From assembly GCA_964358345.1 (NCBI GenBank), contig CAYHOM010000002.1, positions 1 through 30,662 on the forward strand: a stretch of DNA of 30,662 nucleotides, written 5' to 3'. Under the pieces are notes generated by a model. It did not search any database. It had not been told where the DNA came from and saw nothing but the letters and a program-made list of their open reading frames with translations. Source of the DNA: an uncultured Gammaproteobacteria bacterium. Lineage in GTDB: Bacteria > Patescibacteriota > Patescibacteriia > 2-12-FULL-60-25. Shown here piece by piece: positions 5,645-6,216 of the stretch; the first letter of the stretch is position 1; each line of letters opens with the position of its first letter. Both the position numbers and the translations under genes were made by a program.

Positions 5645-6216
5645 GGGTCGTGGTTAGGGGAGAGATGATGAAGTGCCTTCAAGGCACGGTGATGAATGAC
5701 ACGAACATGCCCAACGGATTTTTCCATAACTCTGGCGATGTCCGTGAAGCTCAACTCGTCAATCAAGCGCAGGGTGAGGACATCCTGATAATCCTCCTTG
5801 AGCCGAGAAATCCTGTTCAGAATAAGGGCTAAATCAGCGCGTATATGGATAAGATCACGGCCACGATTGTGATCAGAGATGTCCTCCTCTGCTATATTAG
5901 ACGTATCTGAGGAGAGAAACGTTACGGTTGGCTGTTGATACCCATCCTTTCTACGATAGGCATCTACAACCAAATTCCGGGCAATTCGATAGAGAAGGGC
6001 CCGAATATGGCTCACTTCCTTGTTTTGTTGGAGGTACTGCCAACACCGTAAAAAGGTCTCTGACGTAACATCTTCCGCCGCTTCCTTGGAAGGAAGTTTA
6101 AGGTAGACAAAACGATAGATCGCTTTAACATAACGGTCGTAAATACGTCCAAACGCCTCCGGATCGCGCTTGGCACGAATCCGGAACAGGAGATACTGAT
6201 CAACAAGGTTGGTCAT
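5641..6216 (-). CDS. ECF-family sigma-70 RNA polymerase sigma factor (191 aa)
   Basis: Region 2 DPEAFGRIYDRY...AEDVTSETFLRCW...LYRIARNLVVDAYR and region 4 YQDVLTLRLIDELSFTDIARVMEKSVGHVRVIHHRALKAL. Start taken at MTNLVD (6216) rather than the TTG at 6237. Confidence 0.9.
   Translation of the reverse strand: MTNLVDQYLLFRIRAKRDPEAFGRIYDRYVKAIYRFVYLKLPSKEAAEDVTSETFLRCWQYLQQNKEVSHIRALLYRIARNLVVDAYRRKDGYQQPTVTFLSSDTSNIAEEDISDHNRGRDLIHIRADLALILNRISRLKEDYQDVLTLRLIDELSFTDIARVMEKSVGHVRVIHHRALKALHHLSPNHDP
5895..5926 (-). promoter_or_regulatory. Candidate ECF-sigma-dependent promoter inside the sigma-factor CDS
   Basis: Minus strand CGTAAC-(17 nt GTTTCTCTCCTCAGATA)-CGTCTAATA. It resembles the Bacillus SigX/SigM/SigW-type AAC...CGT(C/A) bipartite consensus and lies in the region 2-4 linker, pointing toward DUF5667. 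Confidence 0.45.

Follow-up and report, generated by a model that had tools for sequence, protein, structure and literature searches.

A conserved ECF-type promoter motif within the region 2-4 linker of an ECF sigma factor gene in one family of Patescibacteria

In the window (the whole 30,662-nt stretch of DNA that was analysed, from an ultra-small bacterium of groundwater), a gene encoding a 191-aa ECF sigma factor contains the motif CGTAAC-N17-CGTCT (positions 5926-5899, minus strand) in the part coding for the linker between regions 2 and 4. The motif is conserved as DNA in the window's family, and in most other families of the class it stands immediately 5' of the start codon of the orthologous sigma gene. 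We consider it probable that the motif is a working ECF-type promoter used by the very sigma factor in whose gene it lies. It would have moved into the gene while a sigma70-type promoter took its place upstream, and the resulting circuit would work by negative feedback.

Results

The sigma factor gene occupies positions 5641-6216 on the minus strand, with the ATG at 6216. Pfam matched regions 2 and 4 (Sigma70_r2 and r4_2) and no other region, as in ECF (group 4) sigma-70 factors, and the TIGR02937 score was 77.2, with a cut-off of 42.9. A longer open reading frame starting with GTG at 6237 was not supported, the alignments with orthologues beginning at the methionine of 6216. The nearest NCBIfam subfamilies were BldN and SigM; the score for the BldN family TIGR02952 (107.6) was far below the equivalog cut-off of 206.45, and the protein was therefore not assigned to BldN. 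Four ECF-like matches were detected in the genome, three of them besides the sigma factor studied here.

The initial annotation had read CGTAAC-N17-CGTCTAATA on the minus strand, encoding V-T-F-L-S-S-D-T-S-N-I in frame with the ECF sigma open reading frame, and both readings were found in the window as described. The hexamer CGTAAC, the putative -35 element, lies at 5926-5921, the 17-nt spacer at 5920-5904 and CGTCTAATA at 5903-5895, the putative -10 element CGTCT occupying 5903-5899. The -35 element begins with the third base of one codon, continues through the following Val codon GTA and ends with the second base of a Thr codon. With AAC in the -35 and CGT in the -10 element, 16-17 nt apart, the arrangement is that of an ECF-type promoter, and the two boxes have no complementarity to each other. 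The motif is located on the sense strand, about 256 nt 5' of the ATG of the next gene, which encodes a DUF5667 protein. The transcription start is predicted at 5893-5890, 7-10 nt past the last C of CGTC and about 248 nt ahead of the DUF5667 start codon. A start codon inside the sigma gene from which a protein with region 4 only could be made was also considered and rejected, the alignment containing no conserved in-frame start after the motif.

In the window alone, such a motif is not remarkable. AAC-N17-CGTC occurred seven times against 4.25 expected, which is not above chance, and GTAAC-N16/17-CGTC once against 0.34 expected, with at least one copy in 25 of 100 shuffled sequences. The significance of the motif therefore comes from comparison alone.

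Sigma orthologues were taken from 24 genomes of the same family (47-67% amino-acid identity) and their codons were threaded onto the protein alignment, giving 25 genes with that of the window. All 25 showed the arrangement nnT GTA ACR, five free codons and nCG TCT (CGTC in 23 genes and CGAC in 2). No orthologue had an insertion or deletion between the boxes, although the surrounding linker was rich in them. If the columns of ATG and TGG and a single two-fold Tyr column are set aside, third-base entropy fell below 0.55 bit only in the codon columns of the motif. The codon before the Val encoded eight different amino acids and ended with T in 24 of the 25 genes, the window being the exception. 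The Val codon was GTA in every gene, while GTA made up 14% of the Val codons elsewhere in the same genes (P ~4e-22 if the genes are treated as independent). The codon at the start of the -10 element encoded Thr, Ala, Ser or Pro, yet it had the form nCG in every gene, and TCT accounted for 14% of the Ser codons elsewhere in these genes. The median identity between orthologues at four-fold sites was 0.29, which means that synonymous sites are saturated and that the sequences are nearly independent there. As the bases stay constant at sites of varying amino acids, selection must have acted on the bases and not on the peptide. Synonymous-site conservation of AAC-N17-CGTC beyond amino-acid constraint had been put forward as a check on the proposed promoter, and the motif passed it clearly.

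The survey was extended to 61 genomes of the family, 58 of which hold a sigma orthologue, and in all 58 orthologues the motif occupies the same codons. The exact sequence TGTAAC-N17-CGTC was present inside the sigma gene in 50 of them. The remaining eight were read directly and comprised one CGTAAC-N17-CGTC (the window), six TGTAAC-N17-CGAC and one TGTAAC-N17-CGGC, so that the -10 core was CGTC in 51, CGAC in 6 and CGGC in 1. The window copy is thus the only one whose -35 element starts with C rather than T, TGTAAC being found in the other 57. The spacer varies in sequence and is invariant in length, and in most orthologues it starts with R-TTT; the family consensus is TGTAAC-R-TTT-N13-CGTCT.

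In the other families of the class, 65 orthologues (32-48% identity) were compared, and 54 of them had (T)GTAAC-N15-17-CGTC(T) immediately 5' of the sigma ATG. In most of these upstream copies TGTAAC was located at -33 and the -10 element ended 7 nt before the ATG, which indicates that the sigma message in most other families would be leaderless or nearly so. None of the 54 orthologues with a copy at the start codon had an internal one. The spacer was mostly N16 in the upstream copies, in contrast to N17 in the internal ones. The position at the start codon is the normal one for an autoregulatory ECF promoter, and the motif was therefore regarded as the cognate promoter of this sigma group. 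The ECF-type identity first proposed from the window is supported accordingly, the same motif being the canonical upstream promoter of the other-family orthologues and occupying a promoter position in related genomes.

In a maximum-likelihood tree of 89 sigma proteins, all genes with the internal promoter grouped in a single clade (support 100/99). Less firmly supported (94/86) was its sister group, a lineage in which the motif lies 8 nt past the sigma stop codon, and in another, unrelated lineage it lies 10 nt past the stop. On this tree the internal position arose once, at the base of the window's family. Altogether three other lineages (loci L073/G115, L093/G174 and L030/G025) had no upstream copy and carried the motif downstream, two past the sigma stop, at the 8 and 10 nt already given, and one within the next gene. 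With these three further downstream placements, the shift of the promoter to a site behind the sigma start has occurred more than once.

In the window's family the internal motif lies 290-300 nt into the sigma coding sequence. The region 2-4 linker had been called unusually long. Measured from where region 2 ends as far as the conserved motif of region 4, the median was 50 aa in the window's family versus 41.5 aa in the other families, and in this respect the description was justified; the whole protein, with 191 aa, has a length like that of E. coli RpoE. The median difference of about 8.5 aa can be set beside the length of the promoter, 27 nt or 9 codons.

Upstream of the sigma gene, no ECF-like motif was found either in the window or in the 24 family orthologues, in agreement with the absence noted initially. 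The sigma70-like motif reported at 6267-6295 is present; it is not the only one. Two sigma70-type promoter candidates were recognised on the minus strand between 6335 and 6267, TTGAAT-N17-TAAAAT (6335-6307) and TTGTCA-N17-TATTTT (6295-6267). The pattern TTGnnn-N17-TAnnnT occurred within 170 nt upstream of the sigma gene in 22 of the 24 family orthologues, against a shuffle mean of 1.9. Upstream of the family sigma genes it took the form cTTGnnn-N17-(g)gTAnnnT, often with GG before TA, and this form is usable as a first guess at the sigma70-type consensus of the family.

The gene downstream of sigma (4469-5644, minus strand) encodes a DUF5667 membrane protein of 391 aa, its ATG overlapping the sigma stop codon (ATGA). 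Relatives of this protein carry the NCBI labels Candidatus Uhrbacteria or Patescibacteria. According to BLAST labels, the DUF5667 gene adjoined the sigma gene in 16 of 18 family loci. The other two showed sigma-length gaps or motif positions; there, a greedy choice of open reading frames had hidden the sigma gene, and the motif was present. At the class level, the DUF5667 partner was directly downstream of sigma in at least 39 of 65 loci. The AlphaFold model (pLDDT 78.9) consisted of three N-terminal helices (residues 3-19, 24-41 and 49-60), a helix in the membrane (63-84) and a bundle of helices outside it. The gene adjoins the sigma gene in the same orientation, and its product combines a short N-terminal part in the cytoplasm with a single membrane helix and a domain outside, which is the layout of membrane anti-sigma factors. 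No anti-sigma domain (zf-HC2, RskA or similar) was recognised in the protein, as Pfam at E up to 10 returned DUF5667 only and NCBIfam returned nothing. A Foldseek search with the model against the PDB gave no structural anti-sigma match, the hits being generic helical repeats with a best E of 0.03. The DUF5667 protein is likely an anti-sigma factor and is treated here as a candidate. No Shine-Dalgarno sequence was visible before its ATG in the window, which makes its translation from the shorter transcript uncertain.

Between the DUF5667 gene and the next gene lies a conserved, structured RNA leader of 231 nt (4238-4468, minus strand). One of its hairpins has the form CAGGG...CCTG, and pairing occurs between ACGGGCGGG and CCCGCTCGT. 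The conserved loop AAAGGTCGA and an inner covarying hairpin are enclosed by an outer helix (7-9 bp) whose sequence differs from genome to genome. These three parts, the outer helix, the loop and the inner hairpin, were recovered by independent single-sequence folds in 17 of 19 genomes. More hairpins are located beside the start codon of the following gene, and the fold z-score was -3.6. Rfam gave no match in 4150-6400 at E up to 1. For this sub-motif of the leader, RNAalifold run on a MAFFT alignment predicted no consensus fold, which is explained by misalignment of the variable helices.

The gene behind the leader (317-4237, minus strand) encodes a secreted protein of 1306 aa, an S-layer-like candidate with a signal peptide. 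The mechanical open reading frame begins with a GTG at 4408; this start was rejected in favour of the ATG at 4237, behind which lies a signal peptide ending in ASAA that is shared with 18 other genomes. The protein had no Pfam or NCBIfam match and fell only into unnamed clusters of the protein atlas. It is followed by the N-terminus of a Wzy_C (O-antigen-ligase-like) and TPR membrane protein (2-211, minus strand) cut by the contig end, which is 63% identical to an 802-aa orthologue carrying Wzy_C and TPR domains. The open reading frame 2-238 is that gene; another minus-strand frame, 3-299, was rejected as the gene after the surface protein. The order sigma, DUF5667, secreted protein of about 1300 aa and Wzy_C/TPR protein of about 800 aa was kept in the 18 family loci fetched, with the Wzy_C/TPR gene following the surface-protein gene in 17 of them and the contig end reached first in the remaining one. 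In 18 of 19 genomes (3.0 expected) no sigma70-type pattern was found within 420 nt upstream of the surface-protein gene, and no terminator-like site was recognised on the minus strand. Of the promoters that can be recognised, the internal one is thus the closest to the entire downstream block.

A genome-wide scan for the same motif at other genes, particularly envelope genes, had also been suggested, and it revealed no further targets. In the 1.0-Mb genome, the weight-matrix and relaxed pattern scans returned the internal site alone. Across the 61 family genomes, exact TGTAAC-N17-CGTC gave 94 matches, 50 in the sigma gene and 44 elsewhere. The 44 were not enriched relative to a reversed-pattern control (110), and the apparent depletion is not interpretable because the reversed pattern contains no CpG. 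Avoidance of spurious promoters may explain why copies elsewhere than in the sigma gene are scarce, and so may CpG bias alone. Eight of the sites outside the sigma gene were inspected and two of them preceded a gene, one for an ABC transporter and one, in another genome, for an unknown protein, the two being unrelated. At the first of these (L055:1521-1547, genome G018) the exact motif ends 12 nt before the transporter gene (ABC_membrane and ABC_tran domains); it was seen in one genome and may be due to chance.

One aquifer metatranscriptome contained window DNA, in the form of seven short contigs located at or below 5822, with none in 5875-8000 and a coverage of about 2-fold, too thin to show a transcription start. 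Such a placement of seven contigs agrees with a start near 5892; its chance probability is about 0.12, and equally sparse coverage of this kind was seen in the DNA runs of that study. As the DNA runs look alike, the pattern is uninformative on a start near 5892.

Discussion

The explanation that we consider probable, a promoter inside the sigma gene serving its own sigma factor, would involve the following events. In most families of the class, the promoter on the start codon would make the sigma factor self-activating. At the base of the window's family the promoter would have come into the region 2-4 linker, and a housekeeping-type promoter would now serve the sigma gene. The sigma factor, and by read-through its DUF5667 partner, would be made from this housekeeping-type promoter. 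When active sigma is released, polymerase would start near 5892 and produce a transcript with about 248 nt of the 3' part of the sigma gene, untranslated, followed by DUF5667, the structured leader, the gene of the 1306-aa protein and, probably, that of the Wzy_C/TPR protein. The outcome of sigma activity would be more of its likely inhibitor and of the output genes and no more sigma, i.e. negative feedback without positive autoregulation. The comparisons establish the conservation as DNA, the identity with the upstream promoter of other families, the single origin and the gene order; the start site, the dependence on this sigma factor, the anti-sigma role and the read-through into the surface-protein gene are inferred.

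As an alternative, the internal promoter could be active mainly for the surface-protein and Wzy_C genes, with feedback through DUF5667 incidental or absent. Such a role agrees with the lack of a recognisable sigma70-type promoter before the surface-protein gene, with the lack of a recognisable anti-sigma domain in the DUF5667 protein and with the failure to find another regulon member. The sigma-DUF5667 pair is conserved, however, often with overlapping genes, and the DUF5667 protein is laid out like a membrane anti-sigma factor. We regard this possibility as rather unlikely, although it has the best chance among the alternatives, and it is a variant of the preferred explanation and not a contradiction of it.

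It is also conceivable that the promoter is real and is read by another ECF sigma factor, the locus being a target in a cascade and not in control of itself. The four ECF-like matches in the genome leave room for this, and dependence on a given sigma factor is beyond what sequence alone can show. The motif nevertheless travels with the orthologous sigma gene over dozens of families, with 54 of 65 orthologues having it at the start codon and at least 39 of the 65 loci having the DUF5667 partner adjacent, which is the pattern expected of autoregulation. Moreover, the motif fits the sequence of BldN/SigM-type promoters, and BldN and SigM are the factors that the window's sigma most resembles. Control by another sigma factor is on these grounds improbable.

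Slightly less probable still is that the conserved bases form some other element, such as a translational pause signal, a binding site for a regulator or an RNase site at which the sigma message would be cut off from that of the anti-sigma factor. Conservation by itself does not name a function. The form of the element, with two short boxes that are not mutually complementary, a fixed 17-nt spacing and a free spacer, speaks against these candidates. In other families the same boxes are located in non-coding DNA 7 nt before the ATG, where only action at the level of DNA or transcription is possible. Origin by chance, or as a side effect of a conserved V-T ... T-S peptide together with codon bias, agrees with the frequency of the motif in the window and is refuted for practical purposes by amino acids that vary where the bases are fixed, by the use of two minor codons (GTA and TCT, 14% each) and by the saturation of synonymous sites.

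The promoter within the sigma gene has a precedent in E. coli. According to the account of Rhodius et al. 2006 given in PMC8595263, the rseA P3 promoter is sigmaE-dependent and lies inside the rpoE coding region, and its start, 228 nt before rseA, yields an rseABC message without rpoE (PMC8595263). An internal promoter for an anti-sigma gene is therefore not unprecedented. The two systems share an ECF-dependent promoter between sigma regions 2 and 4 (in the window a probable one), transcription of the anti-sigma operon without sigma (predicted for the window) and a long 5' UTR derived from the coding region of sigma (228 nt in E. coli and about 248 nt predicted here). E. coli, unlike the window's family, also keeps a sigmaE-dependent promoter upstream and with it positive autoregulation, whereas a sigma70-type motif is found at that place in the window. 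The best sigmaE-like match fitting the published rseA P3 start was found at rpoE codons ~116-125, some 20 codons downstream of the aligned position of the window promoter, and the two promoters are therefore independent in origin and analogous, not homologous. They also differ in sequence, GAAC...TCAGA in rseA P3 against TGTAAC...CGTCT in the window's family.

The sigW-rsiW, sigX and sigM operons of Bacillus subtilis (Helmann reviews) are autoregulated ECF operons with the promoter upstream of the sigma gene. Their promoters resemble the present motif in the AAC of the -35 element, the CGT of the -10 element, the spacer of 16-17 nt and the T-rich sequence after AAC, and a membrane anti-sigma gene (in the window a candidate) follows the sigma gene. 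We know of no conserved internal cognate promoter in these three operons.

Streptomyces sigma-BldN (with RsbN) is reported to recognise the bldM promoter CGTAAC-N16-CGTTGA (PMC2375139). BldN represents the best-scoring NCBIfam subfamily (TIGR02952) for the window's sigma, its -35 hexamer is nearly identical to that of the window, and it controls secreted surface proteins. Its -10 element reads CGTT, in contrast to CGTC in the motif described here.

A further comparison is with the cassette of the other Patescibacteria families, which has an orthologous sigma factor and partner, the motif TGTAAC-N16/17-CGTCT and the same leader and surface-protein gene. The window's family differs from it in that the promoter is off the start codon, the spacer is N17 and a sigma70-type promoter has been acquired. 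What is new is the internal position of the cognate promoter.

A wider proposal may be formulated, namely that one family of Patescibacteria rewired an ECF switch. The single cognate promoter would have moved into the linker as a dual-coding insert of roughly 9 codons (27 nt), the sigma factor would have become constitutive, and the sole promoter of its kind in the genome would drive the inhibitor together with the main surface-protein operon. We see the arguments for and against this proposal as evenly balanced. If it is true, the linker peptide V-T...T-S exists only because the DNA is a promoter, and the family offers a natural, datable replacement of positive autoregulation by pure negative feedback.

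With a promoter and a protein linker written on the same 27 bases, the locus is a clear example of overlapping codes, and at least 33 genera have retained it. The same sigma factor, partner and targets, combined in most families with a promoter preceding the sigma gene and in the window's family with one lying within it, provide a natural comparison of circuits, and as the two placements concern the same genes, the purpose of positive autoregulation becomes directly testable. No literature on ECF promoters in Patescibacteria or on DUF5667 was found, and the present data provide a laboratory-testable pair of promoter and sigma factor from uncultured Patescibacteria, in which the control of transcription is almost unstudied.

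The circuit would be tied to the gene of the probable main surface protein. A GT4-family glycosyltransferase gene (6310-7503, minus strand) lies directly upstream of sigma in the window, with a homologue upstream in 6 of 18 family loci, and it fits a neighbourhood of surface glycosylation.
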